A DNA stretch of 64,000 nt from Escherichia coli (lineage in GTDB: Bacteria; Pseudomonadota; Gammaproteobacteria; Enterobacterales; Enterobacteriaceae): NCBI RefSeq assembly GCF_011045215.1, contig NZ_CP049201.1; one strand, given 5' to 3'. Below the pieces are notes generated by a model. The model worked only from the letters and a program-made list of their open reading frames with translations, had not been told where the DNA came from and made no database searches. Of this stretch, positions 24,837 to 43,700 are shown piece by piece. How positions within the stretch are numbered: position 1 is the stretch's first letter; each line of letters opens with the position of its first letter. The position numbers were made by a program, and so were the translations under genes.

Positions 24837-24984
24837 GTTCACTGCCGTACAGGCAGCTTAGAAAAATTGTCGGCGCATTTTCCCATTAGTTGCAAAGTTC
24901 ACTGCCGTACAGGCAGCTTAGAAATTCACAGGTAACATACTCCACCCGCCCACCATGTTCACTGCCGTACAGGTAGATAAAATG
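24837..24984 (+). CRISPR. Orphan type I-F-like CRISPR mini-array (3 repeats, 2 spacers)
   Basis: 28-bp repeat GTTCACTGCCGTACAGGCAGCTTAGAAA at 24837-24864 and 24897-24924; degenerate third copy at 24957-24984; two 32-bp spacers; AT-rich leader-like sequence upstream; no cas genes in window. Confidence 0.85.
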
Positions 24985-25041
24985 CGAAAAAAAAGCTCGT
25001 ACTTTCGTTCGAGCTCTTCTTTAAATATGGCGGTGAGGGGG
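24982..25041. repeat. att-like direct repeat copy 1 (tRNA-Ser 3' end plus terminator)
   Basis: 25028-25046 is the reverse complement of the last 19 nt of tRNA-Ser(GGA), preceded by hairpin plus A-run (a minus-strand terminator); the 60-bp unit recurs at 25161-25220. Confidence 0.7.
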
Positions 25042-25160
25042 GGATTGACTCGCTTCGCTCGCCCTGCGGGCAGCCCACTCACTGCGTTCGTGGTCTGTCC
25101 AACTGGCTGCGCCAGTTGTCGAACCCCGGTCGGGGCTTCTCACCCCCCCTGGAGTGCATT

Positions 25161-25220
25161 ATGCGAAAAAAAAGCTCGCACTTTCGTACGAGCTCTTCTT
25201 TAAATATGGCGGTGAGGGGG
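25161..25220. repeat. att-like direct repeat copy 2 (island left junction)
   Basis: Near-identical to 24982-25041 (2 mismatches); the tRNA-like match is shorter (about 14 nt); lies directly upstream of the integrase gene. Confidence 0.7.
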
Positions 25221-25380
25221 ACCGCCTGAAATAAATCTGACTTAATCCAGGGGTGTTATATAATTTCATTATAAACAATGTATTACACTTTTTGTTGTCC
25301 GATATTATCTAATGTATTCTTAGTGAAGCGAGAGACTAATGGCATACTGGATGGCATACCAGAGTGACGGGAATTAGCGT

Positions 25381-26583
25381 ATGGCAGTATTGACGGATAC
25401 GAAAGCAAGACATATCAAACCTGATGACAAACCATTGCCCCATGGGGGAATTACCGGACTGACCCTTCATCCTTCTTCAGTAAAGGGGCGGGGGAAATGG
25501 GTTTTTCGTTATGTAAGTCCGGTGACACAAAAAAGACGTAATGCTGGATTGGGAACTTACCCAGAGGTCAGTATTGCTGAAGCTGCACGTACTGCCCGGA
25601 TAATGCGAGAGCAACTTGCTGCAGGTGATGATCCTCTGGAGATTAAAAAGGCTGAATCTGAGAAAGTCGTTATCCCAACATTTGCCGATGCAGCCAGGCG
25701 TGTACATGCAGAACTGTCTCCTGGATGGGAAAATCCAAAGCATGTAAGGCAGTGGTTATCGACGCTTGAGAATTACGCGTTTCCTCAACTGGGAGCAAAA
25801 ACGCTGGATTCGATTACGGCTGCGGACGTGGCAGAAACATTGCGTCCAGTCTGGTTAACCTTGTCAGAAACGGCAAGCCGGGTTAAACAGCGCATTCATG
25901 TTGTTATGCAGTGGGGATGGGCGCACGGTTTTTGTGTGGCAAATCCTGTTGATGTGGTTGACCATTTGCTTCCTCAGCAGACAAGAGGACGTGATGAACA
26001 CCAACCCGCAATGCCCTGGAGGCAGTTACCGCTTTTTGTGGCGACCAGTGTGTATAGTGATGAACCTTATAATGTTACCCGCGCACTGTTATTAATGGTG
26101 ATACTTACAGCAACTCGCTCGGGCGAAGCCAGGGGAATGCGCTGGGCTGAAATTGATTTTCATAAGCGGGTATGGACTATACCTGCAGAAAGAATGAAAG
26201 CTAGGCTACAGCATCGTGTTCCTTTATCCCGGCAGGCTATTTACATTCTGGAAAATATACGTGGCCTGCATGATGAACTGGTGTTCCCTTCACCCAGAAA
26301 GCAGCAGATCCTTTCCGATATGGTGTTGACAAGTTTTCTGCGTAAAAAGAAAGCCGTCAGTGACATTCCGGGGCGAGTTGCCACGGCACATGGTTTTCGC
26401 TCAACATTCAGGGACTGGTGTAGTGAACAGGGGTATTCGCGGGATCTGGCGGAAAGGGCGCTCGCTCATACGCTGAAAAATAAGGTTGAGGCGGCATATC
26501 ATCGCACTGATCTACTGGAGCAGCGTGTACCGATGATGCAGGCATGGGCGGATTATGTGATGTCTCAAATTGTGAATAAATAA
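25381..26583 (+). CDS. Tyrosine recombinase, P4-type integrase family
   Basis: 400-aa ORF; N-terminal arm-binding-like region and C-terminal catalytic region (AHGFRSTFRDW...LAH...Y); adjacent to att repeat. Confidence 0.85.
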   Translation: MAVLTDTKARHIKPDDKPLPHGGITGLTLHPSSVKGRGKWVFRYVSPVTQKRRNAGLGTYPEVSIAEAARTARIMREQLAAGDDPLEIKKAESEKVVIPTFADAARRVHAELSPGWENPKHVRQWLSTLENYAFPQLGAKTLDSITAADVAETLRPVWLTLSETASRVKQRIHVVMQWGWAHGFCVANPVDVVDHLLPQQTRGRDEHQPAMPWRQLPLFVATSVYSDEPYNVTRALLLMVILTATRSGEARGMRWAEIDFHKRVWTIPAERMKARLQHRVPLSRQAIYILENIRGLHDELVFPSPRKQQILSDMVLTSFLRKKKAVSDIPGRVATAHGFRSTFRDWCSEQGYSRDLAERALAHTLKNKVEAAYHRTDLLEQRVPMMQAWADYVMSQIVNK

Positions 26584-26770
26584 TAGTGAAAATGTATATT
26601 GTACGATCATGATTTGATATGTGATCGTGGCAGTAGTAATTAAGGAACCGCTTTTATGTCAAATGTATTGAGCTGATAATTATCAGATCGTCAGGAAAGC
26701 GTATTTTTATAAACAGGGGATTACTCAACAATCTCCTGTTTATAAAAAACAATTTGCCTGTTTTAACGTT

Positions 26771-28588
26771 TCACTCCTGCTGAGACTGAATTATTCCTAG
26801 TGCGTCATAAATCAGTCTTCTGCGTAGTTTATTGTTTTTATCTGCACCATATAACATAAATATATTTTCAACTTTTTCTTCAGGTGTTCTGAGATAATGG
26901 ATAAGAAAGGTTATCATTCCAACACAATGGAATAAAGTGAATCCATCAAACAGGCTTATCAGGTTTCCTTTTTTTTCCCGTGTTGTAAGTATTTTTTCGC
27001 GGGTAAGAATATTTGCTAGTTCATGGGGGGTTGATATATTTCTGCTGTCTATAATGTTATTTATTTTACCAAGGGCTATATCAACTTCCTGTAATAGGTT
27101 ATTTATCATAGCTGAGTGAATGTTATTGGTTTCATGTTCCTGACAGTTTATGAACTTATAAATCATTGAGTTATACAGAAATATTACTCTTCCTAATAAA
27201 TATGTGTTTGTGTCATTTTGAAGACAGGACTCTGGGTATTCGTGATCCAGTGAAATAAGGTTAATGGACTCGCCCTGATAAGTCATAAAATAATTGATGT
27301 CATTTAATAATGCTCGGATATTTACATGATTTTTACTGAATTTTATTTTAAATGCTATCTTTAGTATAGCAAACGCGGCAATGATAAATCCAAAAGGTAA
27401 TTTCTCATAGTTCAGTTTATTGATGGTGCGATGAACACTTTCAGTCTTTCCTGAAGTAAGTTGTATCAAACAGTTAACAAATTCTGTATAGCCATTTAAG
27501 ACATAATGGCATGAAGAATCTTTTAAAGTGTTTTCTATGTTTTGTAATGTGACGCCGTTGTTCAATGTATAAATGTAACCGCCAAAGACAATGTTTTCAA
27601 TCTCAACGACACAATTTATTGTTTTTTGTTCAGGATAAAGATAAATATCAGAAATACTATAGTCTCGTATTGCGTCAATGGCCTCCCACGATAATGCACT
27701 GTCAATTTTCAGTGTATAAAATGGTGAGTTCTCATTAGGAAAGTAATATATGTGTTTGTTCAGTATATTCATTACATCTATTGGGTTGGTTAAATATAAT
27801 AACTGGCATTCATATTCTGAAACTTCTCTTTCGCTTATCAGCATTTTATATAAAGTTGCCAGGGCGCTTGTTAATGAAGTTCGTCTTTCGAAAGCCAGTA
27901 ATATGGTGAGATAATAACATGCAACTTGAATTTTATCTAAGTCAGAAATTATTTTTTCCTTGTCTTCATTACTTAAATAAAGCAGATGTTTACAGGTTTC
28001 TTTGCATGTGTTGATAGTTGCGGTAAGTTTTGTTTTTCCTGGTGTACTGTTTTTGCGAATATTACGAATGAATTCATATACGCCATCAAAGATATCTTTG
28101 AAATGCGCATTCGCTGGTGTGTATCCGGATAAACATAACTTAATGTAATTTCGCAGATATGTCCTTGCAGCATGATATATATCATCCTCATTATCCGGTA
28201 TCTGAGTGAGAAAAGAATGAATATGATAGTAAAATGCCATCTCATTATCCGGGCGATATGTGTTCCTGATGTCGAGTGCGAGAATCATTGGTACAATGTC
28301 ATTAAAATATTTTTGTTTTATTATTTGATGTGTTTTGTCTGTAAAAACAGAATAGTGCATTAGCTTAACATAGAGATCTTCATATCTCCTAAATATAACT
28401 TTTCGTTGTTCTGTACTCAATACTTGTTCTTTATCAATAATGTTTATTAATTCATCAAACATGTCGCCCAGTGAATGTTGATGTGAGGAAAAATTTTTAA
28501 TATTTCGGATGTCACGGGTATTCTGGTTTTTAGCCAGAACACCAAAACATGAAAAGACATCATACATTATAGTGATAAAATTATACAT
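26771..28588 (-). CDS. Hypothetical 605-aa protein, AT-rich, no recognised domain
   Basis: Long uninterrupted ORF with strongly AT-biased codons; no P-loop or nuclease motif recognised by eye. Confidence 0.55.
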   Translation of the reverse strand: MYNFITIMYDVFSCFGVLAKNQNTRDIRNIKNFSSHQHSLGDMFDELINIIDKEQVLSTEQRKVIFRRYEDLYVKLMHYSVFTDKTHQIIKQKYFNDIVPMILALDIRNTYRPDNEMAFYYHIHSFLTQIPDNEDDIYHAARTYLRNYIKLCLSGYTPANAHFKDIFDGVYEFIRNIRKNSTPGKTKLTATINTCKETCKHLLYLSNEDKEKIISDLDKIQVACYYLTILLAFERRTSLTSALATLYKMLISEREVSEYECQLLYLTNPIDVMNILNKHIYYFPNENSPFYTLKIDSALSWEAIDAIRDYSISDIYLYPEQKTINCVVEIENIVFGGYIYTLNNGVTLQNIENTLKDSSCHYVLNGYTEFVNCLIQLTSGKTESVHRTINKLNYEKLPFGFIIAAFAILKIAFKIKFSKNHVNIRALLNDINYFMTYQGESINLISLDHEYPESCLQNDTNTYLLGRVIFLYNSMIYKFINCQEHETNNIHSAMINNLLQEVDIALGKINNIIDSRNISTPHELANILTREKILTTREKKGNLISLFDGFTLFHCVGMITFLIHYLRTPEEKVENIFMLYGADKNNKLRRRLIYDALGIIQSQQE

Positions 28589-28755
28589 AACATTCTCCTT
28601 TTATTGCACTATATAAAATTTTAACATTATATCATTTTGCTTTTCTGTTAACTGGTTTTCATTTTTGAATCAATATTTTCTGAACAGGGTAATAGTACAC
28701 GTATTAACAGATTATGTCAGAAGGCCCCGGTGATGCCTTCTGACGATAGATTAAT

Positions 28756-29477
28756 GTGATATTCTATTGGTATCTGGAGACCATATGGCAACAGTTACAG
28801 TACATTCTCCCCGCTGTAATTCCTATAAAGTGTACCATTATGATCACAGCACCTCAGATCATGAGCGTTTCCAGTGCTAATCCTGCAAATGTGTGTATTT
28901 CAACTGAATTACATCTACGAAACCCGAAAACCAGGCATCAAAGAGCAAATTGTTGAAATGGTTCATAACGGAGTCGGGTTCGCGATAGCTCCAGAACGCT
29001 GAAGGTGGATATCAACACCGTCATTCTCACTTTATAAAACGCTCACCACGCAAAGTAACCACATCTCCAGACGTCAGTGCCGATGTGGCGCTTATCTGCG
29101 AACTTGATGAACAATGGAGTTTTGTCGAAAACAAAGCTCGTCAGCAGTGGCACTGGTATGCGTATAACACCAAATCTGGAGGTGTGCTGGCTTACACTTT
29201 TGGTCCTCGCACTGATGAAACATGTCGTGAGTTGCCGGAACTCCTGAAGCCATTCTCCACAGGCATGATAACCAGAGACAACCGGAGCAGTTATACCAGA
29301 GAAATGCCACAGGATAAGCATCTTGTCGGCAAGATATTTACCCGGCGCATTGAGCGCAACAATCTGACACTTCGTACTCACATCAAACGACCAGCCCGGA
29401 AAACGATTTGCTTTTCACGCTCCCTGGAAATTCACGAAAAGCCATTGGTTCATTTATCGAAAACACTGTACTACTGA
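28756..29477 (+). pseudogene. Degenerate IS1-family element remnant (InsA/InsB-like, frameshifted)
   Basis: 29085-29477 translation ALICELDEQW...YTFGPRT...QRIERNNLTLRTH matches the InsB pattern; InsA-like pieces upstream broken by stops. Confidence 0.6.
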
Positions 29478-29700
29478 CTGGAGTCATTACCAGGGCCTCT
29501 TTTGCTGTTTTTTTACCAATGAATGATAATGAGAATCGACAGTGATAAGGAGAAAGTAAAATAACAATAATGCTGTTGTTTTCTATCGTATTGATTTTTA
29601 ATTATTTATTGTCTTTTTGCTCAGCCCATTTTTTTACGCAGACAAATTTACCCGGGGAATACAAACTGTAACGACAGTTCACCACACTATGGGGGATAAA

Positions 29701-29997
29701 ATGCCAGATCAATCCGGATACTGCTGGACTCCTTCACGCATCTTACGGATGCCTGAACTGAGCCAATTGTTAGGTATATCTCGTTCGACAATTTACGAAA
29801 AAATGAATCCGTTATCGAAATACTACGATGCAACCTTCCCCAGGCCGGTACGTCTTGGTAGTGGTTCTGTGGGCTGGCGTTCATCAGCTATTGACGAATG
29901 GCTTACTTTACATACTGTACCTGCCAGATCAGCAGTCAAAGGTGTTAATGACGAAGTGCGACATACGCTTTCTTCAGATATGACCATGAGCAGATAA
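29701..29997 (+). CDS. AlpA-family transcriptional regulator / excisionase-like
   Basis: HTH segment LSQLLGISRSTIYEKM...FPRPVRLGSGSVGWRSSAIDEWL; SD-like ggggga before ATG at 29701. Confidence 0.65.
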   Translation: MPDQSGYCWTPSRILRMPELSQLLGISRSTIYEKMNPLSKYYDATFPRPVRLGSGSVGWRSSAIDEWLTLHTVPARSAVKGVNDEVRHTLSSDMTMSR

Positions 29998-30170
29998 GTT
30001 TTTGTCATCACGTGATCACCTCAGGAGGAAAAAGAAGCATAAGAACAATTTAGCCAGAAGTTTAATTGATAAACAGAATTTCCAGCATTCATTGTTGAAA
30101 GAGCAGCTATTGTCGCTATTGTAGCGGTAATTGCTGCTATAACCGAAACGTATTACGAAAAAGGAAGCAT

Positions 30171-30421
30171 TTATGTCTTACATCAAACCGGATATGCCGT
30201 ATTCAGTATATACGTGACCATCAATGATAGGGAAGGCAATAATTAAAGCTCAATACAATAAACAAGTACCTCTGACTCTGGTTGCAATGTCAGTATTAAC
30301 AGCGATGTCAATTGCCTGTCAGAATCAGGTTGACGTATGCAGCCCCGGAAATTTACGTGGGGCCGTTAATATTTACACTATGGTTCTGGAGAAAGGGAAA
30401 AGACCGGGGGAAAGGTATTAG
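30171..30421 (+). pseudogene. Truncated, frameshifted duplicate of the N-terminus of the downstream DUF3987-like gene
   Basis: 30224-30421 translation ...VAMSVLTAMSIACQNQVDVCSPGNL parallels VATSALTAISIACQNQIDVCRPGNL of the 30640 gene; upstream leader also duplicated. Confidence 0.45.
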
Positions 30422-30639
30422 TGAAATAATTTCTGGAGGTATTAAGAATGAGAAATATGAATGATATTTCGTGGTAAATAATACAGTCTGCACTGAATTA
30501 ACCTTATCGGTTTATTAAACATCAGATCTACAAATGCTCAGTATTTCTCAGAGCATCAGGTCTGAATAGCAGCTATTTTCGCTATTGTAGCGGGAGTTGC
30601 TGCTATTTTACTAACCCATTAATGAAAAGAGAGGCTTTT

Positions 30640-32073
30640 ATGTGCTTACTTGCACCAGAAAATCCTTATCCGATATATGCACTACCACCGCTGGTGAGAA
30701 ATGCAATAATTGAAACTCAAAAAAATACACAGGCACCTTTGGCTATGGTGGCAACATCCGCATTAACAGCGATCTCAATTGCCTGTCAGAATCAGATTGA
30801 CGTGTGCAGACCTGGAAATTTACATGGGCCTGTTAATCTTTACTCTCTGATTCTGGCTGATTCCGGTGAAAGGAAAACGACCGTGGATAAAGTGTTTATG
30901 AAAGCATTTTATCTCAGGGATGAAGCCCTGGCGGAAGAATACGCGAAACTGGTTGAGAATTACAGTACAGAAAAGGAAATATGGGAGCAAAAACAAAAAG
31001 CGCTGGAATCAAAATTTCATAAAGAGATTCGTGCCGGTAAAGATTACAAGGCAACAGAATCAGAGCTTGAAACGCATCTGAATAAATCTCCTGTTCCGCC
31101 GCAGATACGTCGAACAATTTTTAATGAGACAACGATAGAGGGAATGTTAAAATATTACTCTGATAGCAATCGCTCTTTTGCTCTTGTATCCAGTGAAGGG
31201 GGGGTAATTTTTGACAGCCGGGCCATGAGTAAACTGGGAATTATTAACACTTTGTGGGATGGAGGTTCTCTTTTCATCGACAGGAAATCATCTCCCGGAA
31301 TTAATTTGAAGGAGCCAAGACTGACGATATCGGTGATGATTCAGCCTGATGTTTACCACAAAGGTTTTTGTACGCGAAAAAAAGAACTTGTGAAAACGTC
31401 AGGACATCATGCAAGGTTTTTGATGTGTCAACCAACATCAACGCAGGGGACAAGGATAATAACCGGAGATAATTATTCATCACAGTATCAGGATTTGTTT
31501 GAAGAGAGGATCAATGAGCTTATTGATGAAAGTCTGGCGATGAGTGGTGAACGACGTTGCCTTCACTTTTCTCCTCAGGCTGCCAGAATCTGGACGGATT
31601 ATTACAATGATGTGGAATCGAAGCTGGGGGGATTGGGGCCTTTAAGACATTGCCGGGAATATGCTGCTAAAAATGCAGAGTATATGGCAAGACTGGCAGG
31701 ACTTATTTACCATTCGAGCGGTGAAGAGGGGGAGATTTCCCCTTACACTGCAGAAATGGCGAGAGAATTAGCAATATGGTACGGTAATGAGTATGTGCGG
31801 TTGTCTAATCCGTTAACTTTTGACAACTCCGCCCTGACCGTACCTGTGCGACTCATTCCAGAGGAGCTTGAACTTTTCAACTGGATAAAAAGCTATTGCA
31901 TTGAGAAGGGGATCCTCTGTATGAAAAAAAATGACATTTTACAGCGTGGCCCGAACCGTTTCCGGAAAAAGGATAAAATCAACTGGTTACTGGATTTACT
32001 GTATGAACAAAACAGAGTTGTACCGGTTATTGAGGGAAAAACGTTGTGTGTCGCACCTAACTTTGACCTCTGA
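30640..32073 (+). CDS. DUF3987-like (YfjI-like) island protein
   Basis: About 478-aa ORF; assignment from recalled similarity to prophage YfjI-type proteins; SD agagagg before ATG at 30640. Confidence 0.5.
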   Translation: MCLLAPENPYPIYALPPLVRNAIIETQKNTQAPLAMVATSALTAISIACQNQIDVCRPGNLHGPVNLYSLILADSGERKTTVDKVFMKAFYLRDEALAEEYAKLVENYSTEKEIWEQKQKALESKFHKEIRAGKDYKATESELETHLNKSPVPPQIRRTIFNETTIEGMLKYYSDSNRSFALVSSEGGVIFDSRAMSKLGIINTLWDGGSLFIDRKSSPGINLKEPRLTISVMIQPDVYHKGFCTRKKELVKTSGHHARFLMCQPTSTQGTRIITGDNYSSQYQDLFEERINELIDESLAMSGERRCLHFSPQAARIWTDYYNDVESKLGGLGPLRHCREYAAKNAEYMARLAGLIYHSSGEEGEISPYTAEMARELAIWYGNEYVRLSNPLTFDNSALTVPVRLIPEELELFNWIKSYCIEKGILCMKKNDILQRGPNRFRKKDKINWLLDLLYEQNRVVPVIEGKTLCVAPNFDL

Positions 32074-32334
32074 ACGACTTAATCGTTGAGTACATATAGT
32101 CTCCTCTGCTACTTGCGGAGGAGACTAATGTCTTTACCATGTCAGCGTTGTATTAGAAAACTCTGGTACAGGTCAGTCAGTAAATATAACTGGTGTAACC
32201 ACTATTTACTATTGGATAGAGTGTTGCTCAGGATATTGTCGGCTTTAGTCTGAGGTGAGGTGGGGCCTTCATTGTTTTCGTGTTCAATAAATAATTTAGG
32301 TTAATTAGTATTATTAGTGGGAGTTATGTGATCT

Positions 32335-32702
32335 GTTATGTTGTCTCTTTTATCGTAATGTCACTCCTCTCTATGCTAAGTATTCTGTATGTGTGTAATA
32401 CATATATCTCCATACACTACGCAGTGAAGCATATGGGGGGAAGCTGTATGGTGAATTATGTGGTGTAATGTTGGGAACATAAATCTGTTATGTTATGTTG
32501 TCTTGTACGCACTTAACACTGGTTACGTACCGGAACACTATTAGAGTATGTTATGGCTCCGTTACAGTTTATAAGCATAGGTAAATATAATATTTTCTGT
32601 ATGAAATAATCTTCTTATTGTGAGGTTAAATATCTGTAGGCTCTCTCTGCAGAGTCTCTGTTTTTACTTAATGGTACGGCAATATTAATAGCGATGTTGT
32701 CT
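32335..32702. repeat. Iteron-like short direct repeats in AT-rich non-coding region
   Basis: GTTATGTTGTCT at 32335-32346 and 32504-32515, related ATGTTGTCT at 32694-32702, within a 0.9-kb gene-free AT-rich stretch upstream of a Rep-like gene. Confidence 0.4.
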
Positions 32703-33011
32703 GTGGCTACCCGGTACTGACTTTTGTGAAGATCAGATTATATCCTGTAAGTAATTGAATGGTGCTTTCTTAAACTCAATTATATGAGGTGTGTTTTTTA
32801 TTGTAATTCGTTCTGGTCCTCAGTTTAAGAAAGTCTTACTGTATTCTGAATCATTACCCTATTACTGTAATGAGGTAATACGAAACAGTTTTATCAGGTT
32901 GTCTGTGCTGCTGGTTACCTCTTTTATTAATGCCGCGGTACGGCGTTTCTGTACTCTCAGTATTTATGTAATTCCACTTTCCTGTCAGTTTTATAAAGTA
33001 AGGACTATAAA

Positions 33012-33575
33012 ATGTATAATGCCAATCCCAATTACGAAATGAATTTCGCGATTCTGAAAGATGTGAATGAACACATGGAAGGTCTGTTTCAACGTTTTTC
33101 TAAACTGTTACCTTTCAGAATTGATTTTGCTTACAGGAAAGACACGCCCAGTTTTGGTCTTTCCTGTAAGCACAGTATGTGTATGGAAATGTACCGCTTA
33201 CTTAGCGAAACCCAGACGATGTTGGCGGGATATTACTGGGTAATGGAATATACACCAGACAAAGGGCTTCATATTCATTTTATCGGCTATCTGGATGGAC
33301 AACGTCACAAGAACTCTTATCAGATATCCAGGCAACTGGGAGATATCTGGAGGCGGATCACGGAAGGGGAGGGTTATTTTCACCTGTGCCGGGCTAAAGA
33401 TAAATACCCGGTGCGTATCGATCATGTAATTCACTATAGTGATAAATCTGCGGTAGACGACTTACGTTACGCCCTTAGCTATCTGGCGAAACAGGATCAG
33501 AAAGAACACGGTATTATTCTGGGGCGTAGCAGGCTTCCCGAAAAAAGTAACCGCGGCCGACCACGACATAACTGA
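33012..33575 (+). CDS. HUH-motif Rep-like protein (YagK/YfjJ, inovirus Gp2-like family), paralog A
   Basis: 187-aa ORF with His-hydrophobic-His motif (GLHIHFIGY) and downstream Tyr-containing region. Confidence 0.55.
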   Translation: MYNANPNYEMNFAILKDVNEHMEGLFQRFSKLLPFRIDFAYRKDTPSFGLSCKHSMCMEMYRLLSETQTMLAGYYWVMEYTPDKGLHIHFIGYLDGQRHKNSYQISRQLGDIWRRITEGEGYFHLCRAKDKYPVRIDHVIHYSDKSAVDDLRYALSYLAKQDQKEHGIILGRSRLPEKSNRGRPRHN

Positions 33576-33669
33576 ATTATGGGGGCTTATGTCCGAACTA
33601 TCGTAAGTTATCGCGTGGATTTGCCTTCACACGAATTTCAGTCGTGGTGCCGCCGGGAGACAGGTACAA

Positions 33670-34033
33670 GTGATAACGCATATGGTTTATAAATCTGACA
33701 GCGATGAACTAGCAGTACTGCGGGCAGAAAATACCCGGCTGGTCTCATTACTTGAAGCTCATGGGATTGAATGGCGACGTAAACCGCAGAGCCCTGTGCA
33801 GTGCGTTTTCGTATTATCCACGGATGAGAAAGTTGCGTTATTTTGTCGACTGTTTCGCGGGCGTGATGATGTATGGGCCCTTCGATGGGAAAGCAAAACC
33901 AGCGGAAAGGGTATTCGTCTACCTGGCTAACGAATGGCTGTTGGGAATATGCAGTAAGCCCTGGATAAAATGTGGGGACTGCGCTCACCGTCAGTTGATC
34001 CCTGTATCTGATCTCATCATCTACCAGAGGTAG
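33670..34033 (+). pseudogene. 5' remnant of a larger gene (coiled-coil plus Cys-rich segment), frameshifted
   Basis: 33670-33930 encodes ...ALFCRLFRGRDDVWALRWESKTSGKG; an overlapping frame continues ...ANEWLLGICSKPWIKCGDCAHRQLIP before a stop; no downstream body. Confidence 0.3.
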
Positions 34034-34147
34034 TGTACAATATGCCGATATCGAACTGATACTTAATTAAAATATCTAGAGTGTGATATATCTCTGAGAA
34101 CTATCAATACGAATATTAAAAATACTTCCAGAATAACAGCAATACGG

Positions 34148-34651
34148 GTGGATCTCCATTACCCTCCTGTGATTGACAACGGGGATACCATTACCTGTTT
34201 TCCTAACCTGACCCCCGGAGAAATATCTCGTTTCCGTAACTCGCTGAATGCGAAAATTAATGCAGATCAACACCGTAAAAAACAACAAGGCAAACGCACC
34301 TACGCAACGTCGGTTTGTATTATCTGGGCGAAAGAATATACGCAGTCCTTTAAATGTCATTATCACGTCTGCCTGTTGTTTAACAAAGACGCCTATTACC
34401 ACCTGGGAGACTATGAGCGCTCTGACACCCTGAGAGGGTTAATTACCGGAGCCTGGTACAGTGCCTTAGGGTTGGAACTGGAAGATCACCAGGGATTAGT
34501 TCATTTCCCTACTAATGGGCGTTACATCCTGGATATTAACGATCCTGATTTCCCTGAGCAGTACCAGCGCTTATTGGTACGTCTGGATTATTTGACGAAG
34601 CTCGACACTAAAGCATCAGGCCAGCGTAACTTTGGCTACAGCGGTTTTTGA
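34148..34651 (+). CDS. HUH-motif Rep-like protein, paralog B (start uncertain, GTG at 34148)
   Basis: His-hydrophobic-His motif CHYHVCLLF aligning with paralog A; upstream in-frame sequence still resembles the A N-terminus, so the gene may be 5'-truncated. Confidence 0.5.
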   Translation: MDLHYPPVIDNGDTITCFPNLTPGEISRFRNSLNAKINADQHRKKQQGKRTYATSVCIIWAKEYTQSFKCHYHVCLLFNKDAYYHLGDYERSDTLRGLITGAWYSALGLELEDHQGLVHFPTNGRYILDINDPDFPEQYQRLLVRLDYLTKLDTKASGQRNFGYSGF

Positions 34652-34941
34652 CCTATTGTAACTATAAGGTGATTTATTATGTATATAGAATCTTACCAGA
34701 AAAAATACTTTTCCTTGTGATTTGGTACTGAGTTAACATTTAGTACAGTATTAGGGCCTTCATTGTCAGGCCCTGCTTTGCAATTTTTCAAAGCTCCAGG
34801 TAAGCTTTTTTCCGATAAACATGCTGATATCAAACACCGCTTCTTTACCAGCACTATCAAAAATAATTCTGATATTTGGTTTTTATCTCCTTGTCTATAG
34901 ATTCGTCACCAATACTGTAGCTTGTATCATTACTTCCTCAA

Positions 34942-35715
34942 TTAAGTGGTTAAAGCTCTAATGCTAAAAGAATGCAATATTGGTAGAGAGTTTTTTGAGC
35001 ACCATGACAGATTTTCTTTACTCAGTATTTCATCAATAACAGACTTAGCAAATGGAATGGTGAGCAAGAATGAAGCTTTTTTATCTTTATTTGGAACTAT
35101 GCGGTTACCACCATTTACCCAATGTGCTTCAAGTCTGACATTTAGATCTTGCCATTTTACACCTTTTCGAACACGTTCTTTTTTTAATGAATAGAAAAAA
35201 GTTGATTTACCATTTGGTGTCGGGTGGTTATCCATTAACATTAGCATAAGAGGGATTCCCCAGTCAGGCATATAGCTATAATGCCAGATCCCAAAACTAT
35301 CCGCGATCCTGACCATCCGAATGAATGATTTTTGATCAAGCTTCCCTTCACCTCCCCTTAATGCTCTACAAACAACCCAGGCCCGATAGAGGTTATCAAA
35401 TTGCATGAATTGATTTCGGCGAGATACTGCAATTTCTGCTGAAGCAGAGCGTTCATTACCTGAAAAACCAGAAAAACGTTGAGATCTTGCGCTTAGGGGA
35501 CAGAACTCTTTATTTTCTGGTGAAGCGGAATGAGAGAATCTGGGGCTATAATCAGGATTGGGAGTGACTAATCCGCTATCATGGACAGGTTTCTCGCATG
35601 AGATACAACGTAATGGTGGGTAGTCATCTCGTGATATACCCTTAACTTTTTGTGCATATGCATCAATACTGATTTCAATCCAATAACCTTTTTCCAGAAC
35701 TTCAGCTTTATTCAT
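34942..35715 (-). CDS. Hypothetical 257-aa protein
   Basis: Uninterrupted ORF with AT-rich upstream region; no recognised domain. Confidence 0.45.
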   Translation of the reverse strand: MNKAEVLEKGYWIEISIDAYAQKVKGISRDDYPPLRCISCEKPVHDSGLVTPNPDYSPRFSHSASPENKEFCPLSARSQRFSGFSGNERSASAEIAVSRRNQFMQFDNLYRAWVVCRALRGGEGKLDQKSFIRMVRIADSFGIWHYSYMPDWGIPLMLMLMDNHPTPNGKSTFFYSLKKERVRKGVKWQDLNVRLEAHWVNGGNRIVPNKDKKASFLLTIPFAKSVIDEILSKENLSWCSKNSLPILHSFSIRALTT

Positions 35716-36022
35716 AATGTGTTGCCTCTGATATTGTTCATGTGATTATTGATAATAATAGATTACAGATAAAAAAGAAGAAATATGTATTTAAATCTTG
35801 TATTACAATGTATATATACAATTCAATCAAAAATTAGTGTTTTTAATCTCATGGCATAATCAGAAAACAGCAGAACGGGGTATTTGTTTTAATGGCGCCT
35901 CGATAAAAATTGAGATAACAGTTGCAGTTTAAAACACCTCTATTTCGTGGTTCTGAATATAGAGGCTTTACGATTTATTAAAATATTACTAAAATATGTT
36001 CATATTCCGATGCACAGACCTT

Positions 36023-36418
36023 TCACTTCTGCTTTTTCTCATTTTTGTCAGTTGTAGACTCAGTTTTTTTACGTTTTAACTTTAATATCATCTTTCCATT
36101 GCTAAATTCAATTTCTTCGTAATCGCGGAAAACAGTAATAACCAGAGCAATACCAATGGATGCTGCAGCAATAATAACAGCGATATCAAGTCCGGATAAT
36201 GCAGCTAAAGAACTAACAGCTAAAACAGAACCTCCACCAGTGAGTGGAATAGTAGCACAAGTTGCGATCATGGCAGCAATAACAACACCACTTACTTTTG
36301 TTACAGCCTTTGCTTTTTTAATTTTATTTGCTAACTCTCCTTCAATAATTATAATTTCAGCTCTGCTGTTTTGAGCTTTTTCGAGTTCATCCTTCGATCT
36401 TACAGTAAATTCAGCCAT
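36023..36418 (-). CDS. Hypothetical small membrane protein (131 aa)
   Basis: Central long hydrophobic segment with charged N- and Lys-rich C-termini; hairpin cctctat...atagagg downstream. Confidence 0.45.
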   Translation of the reverse strand: MAEFTVRSKDELEKAQNSRAEIIIIEGELANKIKKAKAVTKVSGVVIAAMIATCATIPLTGGGSVLAVSSLAALSGLDIAVIIAAASIGIALVITVFRDYEEIEFSNGKMILKLKRKKTESTTDKNEKKQK

Positions 36419-36677
36419 AATTATCCTGGTCTTGTAACATTTATGCCATCTTAAGTACTTTTATTTAGAGCGTTAACACGCTCCGCAGTCTATTAAACGC
36501 AACCGCAATAAAAATTAATGTATTTTACCAATCGTAGTCAACTAAAAGTTTCTTAATACCCTGAACGCTACATCCCATACTTCTACTACGATTTGAGCAA
36601 CATTTTGGTATTGACACTGCAGTTTTCCCAATGAAATATGGGCTTATTCAGCTTTTATTGTTTCCTGAATCTATATT

Positions 36678-37301
36678 ATGCGTACACGAATTGATTATCT
36701 GGTGAATAAATACTGTTTTACAGAACTGAATGAATCTCCACGTCTTCGTCGGCAGTGGCAGGATGTTCTGGATGAGTGCCGGCAGACAGGGGCCGGGCCA
36801 GAAGAACGGCTGCGTATTGCACTGCTGAATGTGGATTACGTCACCAGTTTTGAGCTGCCTTTTCGCTTGCTGCTTACCCGGACACCACAACTGATTGCCG
36901 CGCTGCGTGAAGAATGGGGCATCAGCCAGAAAAATGTGGTGTTCAACGATAAACGGTTTGGCTGCGTGTACAGCCTGAAGGCCAGCCTTTCGGGTGTGCC
37001 GGATACATTCCGGTATCATCTGTCTCACCGTATTCGTCGCGTGGTTGGGAATGAAAACACATCATTGCCATATCAGCAGGTTGCCCGGGAAGTGAAAGCG
37101 TCCCGTGAACGGCTGAAGTATGCGCTGGAAGCAGGTTTACTGGTGACCGCACTGGACGGGCTGTTCTGGTCTGGCAGTCAGCGTATTGCGGCTGATGTCC
37201 TGAGATTAAGACAGAGCGGAATGCCGGTAGTGACAACGAATGTGGAGGTGCACGATAACCTGACGGGAACAACCCGCAAAGTGCCGGCATACCATCTCTG
37301 A
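36678..37301 (+). CDS. Hypothetical 207-aa protein
   Basis: ORF with balanced composition; no recognised motif. Confidence 0.4.
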   Translation: MRTRIDYLVNKYCFTELNESPRLRRQWQDVLDECRQTGAGPEERLRIALLNVDYVTSFELPFRLLLTRTPQLIAALREEWGISQKNVVFNDKRFGCVYSLKASLSGVPDTFRYHLSHRIRRVVGNENTSLPYQQVAREVKASRERLKYALEAGLLVTALDGLFWSGSQRIAADVLRLRQSGMPVVTTNVEVHDNLTGTTRKVPAYHL

Positions 37302-37387
37302 TACGACCATCAGGGGGGGCTCTGGCAGCAGTATGACATTCTTTATACTTTTACCCGTGCCTGAAAACATGTGCTAAGGAAACGGGA

Positions 37388-37621
37388 ATGGCAAGGTCCG
37401 ATTACGATATTATCAATCTGTCTCTGGAACATGAACTGAATGAGTGGCTGGCAGAGAGAGGTTATGCCGGACTGGCGGATAACCGGAATCGCCTGGCAGA
37501 AGTTGTTACCCGCAGATTGCAGGACAGCTTTTATATAAACGTTTCCTGGGATGCGCTGAACACGGCATACAGTGAACACCCGGAGTGGTTTTCTGGGCTT
37601 GTCTTCGGGGATGAGAATTAA
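37388..37621 (+). CDS. Hypothetical 77-aa protein
   Basis: Short ORF directly downstream of the 207-aa gene; weak support. Confidence 0.3.
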   Translation: MARSDYDIINLSLEHELNEWLAERGYAGLADNRNRLAEVVTRRLQDSFYINVSWDALNTAYSEHPEWFSGLVFGDEN

Positions 37622-37673
37622 AAAGTGGATTATGCTGCCATCAGGCAGTGTGATTGCCGGCAGGAATTTCGTT

Positions 37674-37865
37674 TTATTCTGTTTCTTCCCGGGGTTCGGG
37701 TTTGAATTTTCCTGGAAAGTTGTACATTGGCCGCATACAGGGATGTGGATAGCCGTCCCGCATAAATACCACCCGGGTTTCCTCAACACTGGTTACGGTG
37801 ACAAGCGCACCATGATCGTCTCTGTATCGCTGACCGACTTTGGGTAACGGGATATCTTCAGACAT
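37674..37865 (-). CDS. Small DUF4222-like protein (63 aa)
   Basis: Short ORF; family assignment by recalled similarity only. Confidence 0.3.
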   Translation of the reverse strand: MSEDIPLPKVGQRYRDDHGALVTVTSVEETRVVFMRDGYPHPCMRPMYNFPGKFKPEPREETE

Positions 37866-38231
37866 AACTTCCGGAACAATGTTGTTTTACACGATATTGT
37901 TGTTATTACCCGGTACGTTGCGGATGCTTTTTCGGGGTATGTTAATTTATTGTTTTGTTGATTTTTTTTTGCTTTTTGTGCATTCCTGTCACTCTGATTT
38001 CTGCCTTTTACCTCACCTCCCTTTCTTCTGACTTTCGCTGAGAACCGCTCAGATTCTGTACTGCATAAACTTCAATGATTTTAATCAAAAATCACTTTTT
38101 TCAGTGTTGACTGGCTGTATTTGAAGCATCTTACGGAATAATTTTCTGTCGTTTTTTGTTCTCCGTGGTTATAAGTTTTGCAATATGCTGCTTTTGCGAT
38201 ATTAGTTGGAATAAATAACTACGTGATAACT

Positions 38232-38456: not shown

Positions 38457-40196
38457 TTGACTGGAAAATTATGTTGCAGGAACGAGAGGGCTGAGGAACA
38501 AAGCGTATTCCGGCGCTGTCCGTCCTTGCTGTCACTGACACTGATGTCTGTTTTATTATCGCCTTTATCTCTTCAGGCCGCGGATGTCCGGCGTAGCGGA
38601 GATAATGCATTTATCATTCAGCAGCAGCGTCAGGAAGCCCTTGAGCAACAACTGACGCCTTCAGCCCCTGATGTTCGCCTTTCTGCACCTGGCTCTTTTG
38701 CCCGTAAGATTAATTTTCCTGTTGAAACGCCCTGTTTTCAGATTAAACAGACGGAACTGGAGGGGGCTGATGCGTTACCACACTGGCTGCCTTTACAAAA
38801 AATCGCCAACGGGGCGGTCGGGCATTGCCTGGGGGCGAAAGGAATTAATCTGCTGATGAGTACATTGCAGAACCGTCTGGTCGATCATGGTTATGTCACC
38901 ACCCGTGTTCTGGCACCTTCGCAGGATTTAAAAAGCGGTATCCTCCGGCTGGTTGTTATTCCCGGTGTTGTGCGACATGTGCGTCTGACACCGGACAGTG
39001 ATGACTATATTCAGTTGTATTCCTCATTCCCGGCACACGAAGGTTCTCTGCTGGATTTACGGGACATTGAGCAGGGGCTGGAGAATATGCAACGACTGCC
39101 GGGTGTGCAGGCTGATATGGAAATTGTACCCGGTGAGCAGCCAGGGGAAAGTGACATTCTTATTACCCGCAAACAGGACAAATACTGGCGACTGGGGTTT
39201 TCGCTTGATGATTCAGGTACCCGCAGCACAGGGCGTTATCTCGGTGGTATAACATTTTCTCTGGATAATCCTTTTTCCCTGAGTGACCTGCTGTATGTTT
39301 CTGCCACCCGTAATTTTCCACATTACGGGGGTAAGGGCAGTAAAAACTACACGGCCCATTACTCTGTGCCTTTCGGCTACTGGCAGTTTTCCGTCACCGC
39401 CAGTGATTACGATTACCATCAGACGGTAGCTGGTGCGGTTGAGGATTACCAGTACAGTGGCGAGAGTCAGAATCTGGGTATGCAGCTGAGCCGGGTACTG
39501 CACCGTAACGGGACGCAGAAAACGGTGCTGACCTACGATGTTCAGGCCCGCAGGTCGCGTAACTACATTAATGATACGGAAATCCAGGTGCAGCGCCGGC
39601 AGACAGCGGCCTGGCGACTTGGGCTGCAGCACCGTCATTATATTTCTCAGGCCACACTGGATGCTGGTGTCAGCTGGCAACGGGGAACCCGCTGGTTTGG
39701 TGCACAGCCGGCGCCGGAAGAAACGTTCGGTGAGGCAACGGCGCTCAGTAAGATCCTGCAGTTGAATGCATCCTTTAATCTGCCCTTTACCCTTGCAGGG
39801 CAGCCCTTCAGTTATTCCTTCCGGTATCAGCGCCAGCTGAGCAATACCCCGCTGACCCCACAGGAACAGTTTGCCATCGGTAACCGCTGGACGGTTCGTG
39901 GTTTTGACGGGGAGCGAACGCTGAATGCCAGTAACGGCTGGTATATCCGCAACGACCTGGCCTGGCGTACGCCACTGCCGGAGCAGGAGTTATATCTGGG
40001 AATGGATTACGGCGAGGTGGGGGGAGCCGGCAGTGAATACCTGGTGGGACGTCATCTGGCTGGTGGTGTTGTGGGGCTGAGGGGGCAACTGTTCAGTACG
40101 GATTATGACGTTTTCATCGGTCGTCCGTTTTCAAAGCCGGCGGGTTTTATGACGAGTGATGTGACAGCCGGTTTTAATCTGTTCCGGGATTTCTGA
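38457..40196 (+). CDS. cdiB: Two-partner secretion outer-membrane transporter CdiB (TpsB family); start uncertain (TTG at 38457)
   Basis: Signal peptide ending [13 protein letters not shown]-like N-region, C-terminal beta-barrel ending in aromatic residue; directly upstream of cdiC-cdiA. Confidence 0.85.
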
Positions 40197-40205
40197 GAAA
40201 GTTTC

Positions 40206-40733
40206 ATGCGTAACGGGAAATATGACGTTCTGAGTCCCCTGTATTCCGGTGAGCCGGTCAATGAGGCGGAAGTCCTGGGGGCGGCCGTCTGGTTGTGGAT
40301 GCACTCCCCCCTGCATCGTGATGCGCCACTGCATACCCTGCCGGACCTGCTGCTGCCGGTGATTAAGCACCGACAGTATGTGGTGGCAACAGAGCAGGGG
40401 CGACCGGTTTTCTTCATGAGCCAGGCCTGGCTCAGCCCGGAGGCAGAGGCGCGTTATCTTACGCAGCCGGCAATTCTCATGCCTCAGTCGGACTGGAACA
40501 GCGGCGACCGGATGTGGGTCTGTGACTGGATTGCCCCTTTTGGACATACCCCGGATATGAGTCGTCTTGTCCGGCAGGATATTTTTCCCCGTCTGTGCTG
40601 GCGTTCGCTGTACCACCGTGGGCAGCAGACCGGGTTGCGGGTGATGAATTTCCGGGGTGCACAGGTCAGTCGTGAAGAGGCGCGCCAGTGGCGTGTGCAG
40701 CACCCGCTTGCTGTGGATGTGCCGGAGAGATAA
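40206..40733 (+). CDS. cdiC: HlyC/RTX-family toxin-activating lysine acyltransferase (CdiC-like)
   Basis: Motifs WLWMHSPLHRD and GDRMWVCDWIAPFG closely parallel HlyC (WLWASSPLHRN, GDRKWFIDWIAPFG); 175 aa. Confidence 0.8.
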   Translation: MRNGKYDVLSPLYSGEPVNEAEVLGAAVWLWMHSPLHRDAPLHTLPDLLLPVIKHRQYVVATEQGRPVFFMSQAWLSPEAEARYLTQPAILMPQSDWNSGDRMWVCDWIAPFGHTPDMSRLVRQDIFPRLCWRSLYHRGQQTGLRVMNFRGAQVSREEARQWRVQHPLAVDVPER

Positions 40734-40748
40734 GTCAGGTTTATCAGA

Positions 40749-43700
40749 ATGAACAAAAATTGTTACCGCATTATTTTTAACAAAGCCCGGGGAATGCTGA
40801 TGGTGGTGGCAGATATTGCCCGTTCCGGTCGCGCCGGTGCATCACCCTCCTCCCGTACAGGATATCCACGCAGGCAACGTATCTGCCGTGTCACATCGCT
40901 TGCATTCTCCCTGTGGCTGGCCTCGGGGATGGTGCATTCTGTCAGTGCTGCAGGCATTGTCGCAGACCATGGCGCACCGGGGCATCAGCAGCCCACGATT
41001 ACGCAGACAGCCAGCGGCATTCCTCAGGTCAATATCCAGACACCTTCTGCAGGTGGGGTATCGCACAATACTTACAGTCAGTTTGATGTCAGTCATCAGG
41101 GTGTCATTCTGAATAACTCGCATAAAAATGTGCAGACCCAACTGGGCGGCATGGTTGCCGGTAACCCGTGGCTGGCGAAGGGAGAGGCCCGAATCATTCT
41201 TAATGAAGTGAACAGTCGCAATCCCAGCCAGTTGAACGGTTTTGTTGAGGTTGCCGGGAAAAAGGCGCAGGTGGTGATTGCGAACCCGGCCGGCATCAGT
41301 TGCGACGGGTGCGGTTTTATTAATGCGAACCGGGCCACGCTGACCACGGGGCAGCCTCAGATGAAAAACGGCAGTCTGACCGGATTCAGTGTTGAACGTG
41401 GTGAGATTCAGATTACGGGCAAAGGGATGGATGCCTCGCGCACGGATTATACCGATATCATTGCCCGGTCTGTGAAGATTAATGCGGGTATCTGGGCGCA
41501 GGACCTGAAAGTGACCACCGGACGTAACAATGTGGATATTGCACACGGGCAGACTGAGAAAAAAGCCGCTGATGCCTCTTCGCAGCCACAGGTGGCGCTG
41601 GATGTGTCCAGCCTTGGTGGAATGTATGCCGGAAAAATTCGCCTTGTCGGTACGGAAACGGGGGTGGGTGTTCGTAACGCCGGTCATATTGGTGCGCAGG
41701 CAGGGGCGGTTACCCTGACGGCTGACGGACGAATTGAAAACAGTGGCAGTATCAGTGCGAAAACGGATGTGCATCTGGTGACAACCCGGGAGCTGCATAA
41801 CAGTGGTTCTGTTTATGCGGGGCAGGATACGCAGATACAGAGTGATGGTGTATTCACCCATACAGGCTCTGTGGCATCACGTCGCAACACCCGGATTCAG
41901 ACAGCGCGTCTGACCGGCGGTGAGCGGAGTCTGCTGGCCGCCGGGGTGAAAGATGACGGACGTCTGGCGGCAGCGGGCAACCTGACTGTCAGTACCACCG
42001 GCGAACTGGCGGCACACGGACAGGTTCTGTCCGGTGGGGACATGCAACTGAAGGGGCAGGGGCTGGATTTAAGCAACAGCCGGATACAGGGACAACATAC
42101 TGAGCTGGATGCAGGCAGCGGAAATCTGTTCACGCAAAATGCGCAACTGAGTGCCGGTACGCTTTCCGCCCGGACTGCCGGGCAGTTCAGCAATAATGAC
42201 GGCACGATAAATGCCGACACACTGCAGATATCAGCACAGAGCCTGTCAAACCACAGGGGTAAACTGATTCAGACGGGAACAGGGGATTTTTCACTGAACC
42301 TGCCGGGAGGTGTGGATAACCGGGAAGGGCTGCTTGCGGCAAATGGCGCGGTGCGCCTGGATGCACTGAGCCTTGATAATCGCAGGGGGAAAGTGCAGGC
42401 GGCGCAGTCAGGTAGTCTGCAGGTGAGGACAACCGGCGCCGTGGATAACCAGCAGGGAAGTCTGATTGCCAGCCGTGACATCCTGATTAATACACAGGCA
42501 CTGAATAACGACAACGGACTGATTTCAGCTGCTGCCGGAACGGGCAGGATAAAAACACAGCAGGCTGTCAGCAATACTGAGGGACGAATGGAGTCCGCCG
42601 GCAGGCTGGATATTTCGGCAGGGAGTCTGAATAACCACCAGGGTACGGTGGTGTCTGACGGGCTGTCCGTGACGCTGGATGGTGCGCTGGATAATACGTC
42701 CGGCAGACTGCTTTCACAGAAAACGCTGTCTGTGTCAGGCAGCGAACTGGTCTCTGATGATGGTCTGATTCAGTCCGGCAGTGACATGACGCTGGATGTA
42801 CAGGACGGGGTTCTCAGTAACCGGAACACGAAAACACGGGGTGGTATCAGCAGCGCCGGTACCCTGACAGTACGGGCCGGTATGCTGAATAACCAGCAGG
42901 GATTTATGGCGGGTCAGAAGGATATGACCCTGAACGCCGGAACGCTCGATAACCGTCAGGGCGTGCTGGGGAGTCAGGCGTCATTACAGATATCGTCAGG
43001 TACGCTGATGAACCAGAAAGGCGCACTGAAGGCCGGGACGGATATGTTGCTGAGTGGTGGCGATGTCAGTAATCAGGAAGGGACGCTTGCCGCCGGCGGG
43101 GACCTGAATGCGCACCTGAATGTGCTGGAAAATCAGCAGGGGACGGTGGTCAGCAACGGTAACAGCAGGCTGGATGTCACCCGCTCTGATAATCAGGGCG
43201 GCAGACTGGTGGCACAGCAGTCACTGACCCTTTCCTCGACGGATATCAGCAATGATGCAGGTGGTCTGATACAGAGCGGTGCCACACTGAATCTCCGTGC
43301 TGACACACTGAGCAACCGTAACAGTGGTGACCGGGGCGGGGTTATCAGTCAGGGCCCGATGACGCTGAATGCCGGCACACTGGACAGCACTGCCGGTGTG
43401 CTTTTGTCGGGAGATGCGCTGTCCCTGACTGCAGGCGTGGTTAACAATACATCCGGTCAGGTGGTGGCGAATGGTCAGATTGTGGCGACCGGTCTGCCCG
43501 GCCGGAACAGTCTGGCGCTGAACAATCAGTCCGGTCTTATTCAGGGGAAAGGCATCAGCATTAATAGCGCAGGCCGGACGCTGGATAACAGAGGGGGTAC
43601 GCTGAACAGCCTGCAGGAACTGACTGTCAGTACCGGAGCAATGGATAACCGGGGCGGGACCGTGGGGGCGAAAACGACAGCTGACCTGAGCACCACCTCG

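Follow-up and report, generated by a model that had tools for sequence, protein, structure and literature searches.

Many pathogenicity and defence islands inserted at tRNA genes are built on an int–alpA–yfjI–yfjJ backbone. AlpA triggers the excision of satellites and CP4-57-like islands (PMC10803314), and the DUF3987 protein is a 5'-3' helicase in MGE replication (PMC11724360). In the int–alpA–DUF3987 elements described as PICMIs, which are phage satellites of ~6 kb, the position between int and alpA is filled by a variable gene, iolg/icg, drawn from thirteen unrelated families (PMC10803314). The corresponding slot of the K-12 island CP4-57, between intA and alpA and divergent from alpA–yfjI–yfjJ, holds the uncharacterised gene yfjH.

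The gene occupying this slot was analysed in a window of 64,000 nucleotides, i.e., the whole stretch of Escherichia coli DNA under study (contig NZ_CP049201.1). It encodes a 605-aa protein and is referred to here as X. Like iolg/icg, X is a variable gene located between int and alpA; however, iolg overlaps int in the same orientation, whereas X is convergent with int across a 187-bp gap and mostly does not lie beside int in its relatives, and the island of X exceeds 38 kb. YfjH shares the slot and orientation of X and is likewise uncharacterised, but at 318 aa it is about half as long. Homology between the two proteins was considered and rejected (BLASTP E=0.39, hhalign probability 0.06%).

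Two further groups of single-gene regulators offer a comparison. Stl of the SaPIs (and, in logic, the phage cI-type immunity genes) is, like X, divergent from the excision/replication operon of its island; it is also single-gene, non-enzymatic, and very divergent between islands with similar replication modules. Unlike Stl, X has no detectable HTH or other DNA-binding domain, is twice as long, and adopts an unrelated all-helical fold; the DNA between X and alpA does not change along with the allele. The likeness would be one of logic. With the RRNPP sensors (NprR, and RapI, which controls ICEBs1 excision), only about 150 of the 605 residues of X superpose; unlike these sensors, X gives no TPR signal in Pfam, lacks internal sequence repeats, and has no adjoining signalling-peptide gene. 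The features of the locus are as follows.

25381..26583, + strand: P4/CP4-57-type tyrosine integrase (int), 400 aa, convergent with X
26704..26748, no strand: hairpin (arms 19 nt, loop 7 nt) with T and A runs on its sides, between the convergent int and X stops
26771..28588, − strand: X, CDS of the 605-aa protein, ATG start; annotated 'hypothetical protein'; ≈WP_000282220/WP_000282216
28589..28640, − strand: 5' region of X, holding the Shine-Dalgarno and the -10-like element; unlike the conserved leader of distant homologs
28600-28595, − strand: strong Shine-Dalgarno AAGGAG of X, 6 nt ahead of the ATG
28634-28626, − strand: predicted extended -10-like element of X, TGATATAAT, 38 nt upstream, from sequence reading
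28785..29478, + strand: frameshifted IS1 transposase pseudogene between X and alpA; approximate coordinates, transferred from the Nissle annotation
29701..29997, + strand: alpA family (Phage_AlpA/excisionase-type HTH), 98 aa, paired divergently with X in every related locus
30622..32073, + strand: yfjI (DUF3987 helicase family), 41% identical to K-12 CP4-57 YfjI
33012..33575, + strand: yfjJ (YagK/YfjJ, 'inovirus-type Gp2'), last backbone gene before the variable cargo
33580-38070: variable cargo segment, 4.5 kb of small genes, different from that of the sister island

Sequence signals and selection on X

A preliminary description of this DNA had reported a single long, AT-biased ORF on the strand opposite the integrase, and both points hold. 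The ORF lies exactly at 26771–28588, spans 605 aa, and is convergent with int. Its GC content is 0.323, compared with 0.488 for int, 0.528 for clpA, 0.42-0.46 for alpA, yfjI, and yfjJ, and about 50% for the flanks. At the base composition of X, a stop arises with a probability of 0.076 per codon (one per ~13 codons), so that the probability of 605 codons without a stop is ≈ 1.4e-21; no open run exceeded 162 codons in 500 shuffles, against the 609 observed. A chance origin of the ORF is excluded.

Compared with a 91%-identical E. coli allele, X displays a dN/dS of 0.19 at a dS of 0.21, with values of 0.05 for int and 0.07 for alpA. A second comparison yielded a dN/dS of 0.27 for X against 0.165 for YfjI, both below 1, at a far higher dS for X. 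Because dN/dS falls between 0.19 and 0.27, X is a real protein under purifying selection. The gene is monocistronic; only a short stretch without coding capacity separates its stop from the 3' palindrome or hairpin, and no small signalling-peptide gene adjoins it. The hairpin at 26704..26748 is likely a bidirectional terminator. Both the palindrome conserved 3' of distant X homologs and their conserved 5' leader are absent from the window.

Family, fold, and distribution of X

The preliminary description had also recognised no motif in X and called it an orphan. The first observation is confirmed: X has no match in Pfam, only insignificant matches in NCBIfam and PHROGs, nothing significant among PDB sequences or in a PDB profile search, and 0 matching families at E≤1 in PADLOC-DB 2.0 (5027 models), in which the neighbouring genes find no match either; NCBIfam matches near X are limited to int and ECs1377. 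The second needs qualification. A word-indexed protein search returned E. coli copies of at least 91% identity only, also with the family profile as the query; however, an exhaustive phmmer/HMMER search of 1.84 billion cluster representatives identified 33 matching proteins, about 15 of which are full-length (568-663 aa) at 25–35% identity; these sequence relatives are from Enterobacterales. Thus, X belongs to no annotated family, but since exhaustive HMMER and Foldseek searches find relatives, it represents a small family without a name rather than a strict orphan. All of the relatives found are annotated as hypothetical or uncharacterized. X itself is known in databases only as a 'hypothetical protein', without family, literature, or solved fold, and literature searches on X (WP_000282220), yfjH, and DUF3987 with AlpA turned up no functional data on X.

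The AlphaFold model of X, built with the family alignment, is confident and all-helical and comprises 31 helices (pLDDT 83.4, pTM 0.83). The relatives that Foldseek retrieved from AFDB50 have TM 0.8-0.88, and every one of them is 'uncharacterized'; they belong to Leclercia, Pantoea, Hafnia, Shigella dysenteriae, Salmonella, Providencia, Proteus, and Edwardsiella and, by fold only, to Aeromonas, Burkholderia, and Pseudomonas, where identity is 12-18%. The PDB holds no whole-chain structural match to the model. Remote-homology and structure-prediction searches, which the preliminary description had recommended, return uncharacterized relatives only.

Only I415, N473, L499, and K508 are invariant in the family alignment, and X thus carries no catalytic-type signature. 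Conservation is highest in the N-terminal residues 1-130 and in the C-terminal residues 380-560, and the middle of the protein, residues ~240-380, is acidic and the most variable; the pI of the family ranges from 5.7 to 9.2 and is not uniformly basic. An hhalign comparison of five segments against each other revealed no internal repeats, Pfam and NCBIfam detected neither a DNA-binding (HTH) domain nor a TPR family, and there is no transmembrane helix in the model and no effector domain. An HUH-nuclease reading of the 'HIH' at residues 121-123 was rejected, as the motif is not conserved in the family and the fold is all-alpha.

Of 5426 complete E. coli genomes, 1030 (~19%) have DNA that covers at least 80% of X, mostly at ≥99% identity, and the carriers include Nissle 1917 (at serX, next to dgcT), O157:H7, and O111 strains; Nissle 1917 and CFT073 have the allele of the window. 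The dominant cluster (8897 member sequences) retains the full 605-aa frame, and a minority of the E. coli copies are C-terminally frameshifted to 542-546 aa. No fewer than three divergent alleles occur in E. coli, and two of these share the serX site. Viral relatives are absent from BFVD and from phage genomes, and the plasmid collection contains X in four E. coli records only, two of which are chromosome-sized (1.4-4.8 Mb).

Synteny with alpA and the position of the variable cargo

The flanks consist of the E. coli genes cspD–clpS–clpA. The island lies at the serW site, where the tRNA is reduced at this end to its 3' 19 nt, and for this reason ARAGORN finds no tRNA. The gene order, with X on the − strand followed by alpA, yfjI, and yfjJ, matches that of the relatives, apart from an IS1 remnant between X and alpA that widens an ancestral intergenic region of ~60-105 bp to ~1.1 kb.

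In 23 of 23 loci, X divergently adjoins alpA–DUF3987(yfjI)–yfjJ, wherever the integrase sits. The arrangement is found in all ten family representatives with readable context (P0024, P0025, P0026, P0027, P0030, P0034, P0037, the 91% allele P0019, the very distant P0051, and P0052), in which X is divergent from alpA (PF05930)–DUF3987, usually with YagK_YfjJ next, at gaps of ~60-105 bp. It is also found in an independent survey, in which the AlpA profile was searched against one genome per species: each of the 13 enterobacterial-type loci obtained carries yfjI downstream of alpA and, in divergent orientation to alpA, an ORF of the X family. These loci belong to Kluyvera, Xenorhabdus, Citrobacter koseri, Salmonella diarizonae, Edwardsiella, Enterobacter cloacae, Pseudescherichia, two Providencia, Morganella, one more Enterobacterales genome, and one MAG. 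The slot holds no other family within the enterobacterial AlpA clade, and the distant AlpA loci of Ralstonia, Neisseria, Acinetobacter, and Halomonas have no X. The arrangement of int and X, by contrast, varies; in most relatives, int lies beyond the module, beside yfjJ or yfjI. In four loci (L003, L004, L010, and L014), int is found past yfjJ/yfjI, frequently separated from the module by defence genes, and X occupies the far end.

The genes that are exchanged between related islands lie elsewhere. The same island is present at serW in E. coli OkiPb01695 and in several O157 strains, where the int-to-yfjJ backbone (25161-33579) is 97.9% identical. After yfjJ, the window contains the 4.5-kb segment of small genes, whereas the sister island contains an IS66 fragment and a type I Zorya system, zorABCD; beyond the swapped segment, homology returns in the two-partner-secretion region. 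In K-12, abpAB follows yfjJ, and the regions flanking the four-gene unit in relatives encode CHAT, type I RM, Abi_alpha/Abi_C, SLATT/PNP, and GAP1/DO-GTPase proteins. The true hotspot of defence cargo is located after yfjJ, and not in the slot of X.

The preliminary description had regarded X as variable cargo by virtue of its integrase neighbourhood. This view is not sustained, as X is tied to alpA, and not to int, in every related locus, and a survey of what occupies the position in related islands, which the same description had suggested, argues against it: one and the same family fills the slot in 23/23 loci, and the swapped genes lie after yfjJ. The preliminary description also called the island a P4-type element. 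The integrase is of the P4 family, and, as at the defence hotspots of P4-like satellites and in integrase-adjacent defence islands, it is found at a tRNA site in islands with defence systems (Zorya, AbpAB, RM, Abi). However, in homologous islands the genes annotated in RefSeq are int, X, IS1, an HTH regulator, YfjI, YfjJ, and then cargo, with none of the P4 core genes (psu, delta, sid, alpha primase), and the defence cargo lies after yfjJ and beyond X rather than in its slot. New here are two points: X is recognised as a conserved yet hypervariable companion of the alpA module, and the true hotspot for cargo is located.

Allele exchange and possible roles of X

The variability of X is evident from two loci, that of Morganella (L010) and that of assembly GCA_028482305.1 (L008), whose AlpA, YfjI, and YfjJ proteins are 93%, 91.5%, and 91.5% identical, whereas X is 34% identical at the amino acid level. 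Their DNA is 92% identical from yfjJ through yfjI, alpA, and the intergenic region to a point ~97 nt into X; identity then collapses, and it resumes at a shared 36-nt perfect palindrome just past the X stop. In distant X loci, this 3' palindrome reads CTGCTACAGCTGCTAC/GTAGCAGCTGTAGCAG. Among 120 locus pairs, YfjI identities of 94, 93, 92, 78, 74, and 73% are paired with X identities of 83, 82, 34, 51, 35, and 50%, respectively; the allelic diversity of X is uncoupled from the replication module. Mosaicism also occurs within the gene, with a dS of 1.1-1.6 in codons 1-120 against 0-0.4 in the rest. The alleles are old lineages (25-38% identity, with saturated synonymous sites) that persist in the population and not products of simple fast drift, and recombination swaps them between near-identical modules, with breakpoints at conserved flanks. 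Additionally, 5 of the 13 species representatives have a split or frameshifted X, in three cases along with yfjI; given these and the frameshifted minority of E. coli copies, X is dispensable.

Taken with the synteny, these patterns indicate that X is very probably a functional gene of an all-alpha family of ~600 aa and an integral, hypervariable part of the alpA–yfjI–yfjJ excision/replication backbone of enterobacterial islands at tRNA sites, in which old alleles recombine, rather than integrase-adjacent cargo. We tentatively propose, by analogy in logic with SaPI Stl or ICEBs1 RapI, whose folds differ, that the protein acts as a non-enzymatic sensor or regulator of AlpA-driven excision and replication, a role that is possible though short of probable. 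The proposal draws on the non-enzymatic and helical character of X, its fixed position opposite the excision switch, its module-independent alleles, and an occasional HTH fusion, described below; against it stand a DNA-binding domain that is not detected, a family pI that is not uniformly basic, and the dispensability of X. X would then constitute a non-enzymatic helical scaffold, an 'immunity-like' component of the alpA module, whose conserved N- and C-terminal parts might contact the module or a host factor, and whose variable middle might recognise a variable ligand, e.g., a protein of a phage or a rival element; ligand binding would gate AlpA-dependent excision and replication. Since the X–alpA intergenic DNA is 92% identical between L008 and L010 and X is 34% identical, the variable part of X cannot set operator specificity, unlike that of a classical immunity repressor. 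Nor do AlpA, YfjI, and YfjJ change in step with the X allele, and contacts with them that depend on the allele are accordingly less likely.

Other roles can be weighed against the same observations. The preliminary description had speculated that X is a defence or abortive-infection gene, and in a broader form X could be a stand-alone anti-phage protein of the abortive-infection or sensor type carried along by the alpA module, with a phage arms race as the source of its many alleles. The ancient, recombining, cassette-like alleles with conserved flanks are indeed patterned as at conflict loci; the islands that bear X are defence-rich on both sides, from CHAT, type I RM, Abi_alpha/Abi_C, SLATT/PNP, and GAP1/DO-GTPase to Zorya, with AbpAB in K-12; X resembles costly defence genes in being AT-rich, monocistronic, and sometimes pseudogenised; and a PICMI satellite with the int–alpA–DUF3987 core carries the single-gene defence UP2 (PMC10803314). 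This role is nevertheless unlikely, as X matches none of the 5027 PADLOC models and contains no effector domain, invariant catalytic residues, or transmembrane helix, and defence genes are normally context-promiscuous, whereas X was seen in one slot only, in 23/23 loci. Furthermore, the swapped cargo of the sister islands is elsewhere, and X is absent from phage genomes and limited to the four E. coli records in the plasmid collection. The strict linkage of X to excision and replication genes would instead suit an island maintenance factor, either an accessory of the replication origin, partition, or excision complex or an exclusion factor against islands that compete for serW/serX. Such a factor would have a parallel in PICMI iolg, a non-homologous gene between int and alpA that is required for excision (PMC10803314), and it would fit the three or more divergent alleles of E. 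coli, two of which share the serX site; the conserved palindrome directly 3' of X in distant loci could be a cis site. However, a core mechanical partner should co-evolve with its module, yet 92%-identical modules carry 34%-identical X; related alpA–yfjI modules function without X (K-12 CP4-57 has yfjH, and the slot is empty in Ralstonia and Neisseria), and the palindrome is absent from the window. We therefore consider this role improbable as well.

Least probable by far is that X is a decaying, H-NS-silenced relic without current function in E. coli. Its AT richness, the adjoining IS1 remnant, the frameshifted E. coli variants, and the copies split in 5/13 species representatives might be read in this way, but the dN/dS of 0.19-0.27 contradicts it, as do the intact frame of the dominant cluster, the occurrence of the DNA in about a fifth of the complete E. 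coli genomes, and a full-length architecture that is kept down to 25% identity.

To return to the sensor/regulator reading, the IS1 remnant separates X from alpA in the window, and its insertion in the E. coli lineage eliminated the ancestral leader, so that cis-regulatory coupling may have been lost in this E. coli lineage. A bolder extension, by the same analogy and doubtful at present, is that the X family constitutes an unrecognised, allele-diverse immunity/sensor class with a new fold, which would couple the recognition of phage or rival proteins to AlpA-driven island excision and replication. If so, Stl-like control logic would operate in a backbone common to the islands of Nissle 1917, O157:H7, and many Enterobacterales. 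X is a concrete candidate for the missing control or sensing component of such islands; should it prove to be a defence gene instead, it would represent a new single-gene system with a new fold.

The fusion to a DNA-binding part is confined to one branch of the family. The 866-aa protein P0052, a member of the X family with the same synteny, bears an N-terminal extension of ~300 aa that resembles the HTH/DDE part of the IS481 transposase (E=2.7e-12), and only the P0052 subfamily carries this added IS481-like HTH. The structural relatives of X in the AFDB also include a 930-aa E. coli protein annotated as 'HTH domain-containing'.

Variable cargo and the two-partner-secretion locus

The segment located after yfjJ (33580–38070) constitutes variable cargo, in which an ECs1377-family gene is accompanied by four small ORFs, none of which gave a Pfam, NCBIfam or PADLOC match.

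Genes of the cargo segment
34148–34651, plus strand, small ORF
34942–35715, minus strand, small ORF
36023–36418, minus strand, small ORF
36678–37301, ECs1377-family gene
37343–37789, minus strand, small ORF

Since exactly this position is occupied by type I Zorya in sister islands, the unknown genes of the segment are, by position, better defence candidates than X, the 605-aa AT-rich gene for which the preliminary description had speculated on a defence or abortive-infection role.

A two-partner-secretion locus spans 38457–50551, and its genes bear the names that their counterparts have in the annotated homologous region.

Genes of the two-partner-secretion locus
38457–40196, ShlB/FhaC/HecB-type transporter
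40206–40733, toxin-activating lysine-acyltransferase-like ORF
40749–50069, hemagglutinin-repeat exoprotein (3106 aa)

The exoprotein is intact in the window, whereas its homologue is broken into fragments in OkiPb01695, the E. coli with the sister serW island.

Sequences flanking X and its relatives

In six of the other loci carrying X-family genes (L002–L004, L007, L010 and L014), a leader/promoter block (…GATACTGTCCCCGTAAAAAACGGAAACCAACCGGAG…ATG) within the ~100 bp between alpA and X is strongly conserved, and the X alleles downstream of it share only ~30% identity; this leader is absent upstream of X in the window. Directly 3′ of X, seven distant loci carry a GC-rich perfect palindrome of 32–36 nt, of the type CTGCTACAGCTGCTAC/GTAGCAGCTGTAGCAG, the symmetry of which is preserved through substitutions, as in the L014 variant CTGCTATTGTTGCTAGCC/GGCTAGCAACAATAGCAG.

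Palindromes 3′ of X
L002, 5676–5710
L003, 9840–9874 and 10147–10181
L008, 9925–9960
L010, 10019–10054
L004, L007 and L014, just 3′ of X

For this palindrome, which the window lacks, possible roles are termination, marking a recombination boundary or serving as a cis site (ori/oriT). An imperfect inverted repeat, AATAGCAGCTATTTTCGCTA/TAGCGGGAGTTGCTGCTATT, lies just 5′ of yfjI (30565–30607); the words TAGCAGC/GCTGCTA are common to this repeat and the palindrome, which may be coincidence.

One subfamily of X, to which the 866-aa protein P0052 (L016, 2467–5067) belongs, bears an IS481-transposase-like HTH/DDE fragment at the N-terminus; this has the appearance of a fusion between a domesticated transposase domain and the X domain, and the fusion gene is still divergent from alpA–DUF3987.

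CRISPR remnant and the serW end of the island

A residual type I-F CRISPR array (24837–24985) is placed between clpA and the island.

Repeats of the array
24837–24864, CRISPR-DR4 repeat 1, perfect, 50 bits
24897–24924, CRISPR-DR4 repeat 2, perfect, 50 bits
start near 24957, third copy, degenerate

The alignment of O157 Sakai to this array begins at the second repeat and continues onward; Sakai lacks repeat 1 together with the spacer belonging to it.

At this end of the island (24985–25220), serW is incomplete: after its terminator, no more than the 3′-terminal 19 nt of the tRNA remain, and ARAGORN found no tRNA across the entire window. These 19 nt are followed by an unrelated insert of ~105 nt, with an RtT RNA match barely above threshold (25028–25163, minus strand; 46.3 bits against 45), and then by a second copy of the terminator, here with the last 16 nt of the tRNA. 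The stretch 25042–25160 is missing from the OkiPb01695 sister island. The arrangement resembles an att site duplicated in tandem, the two copies being separated by a small remnant.
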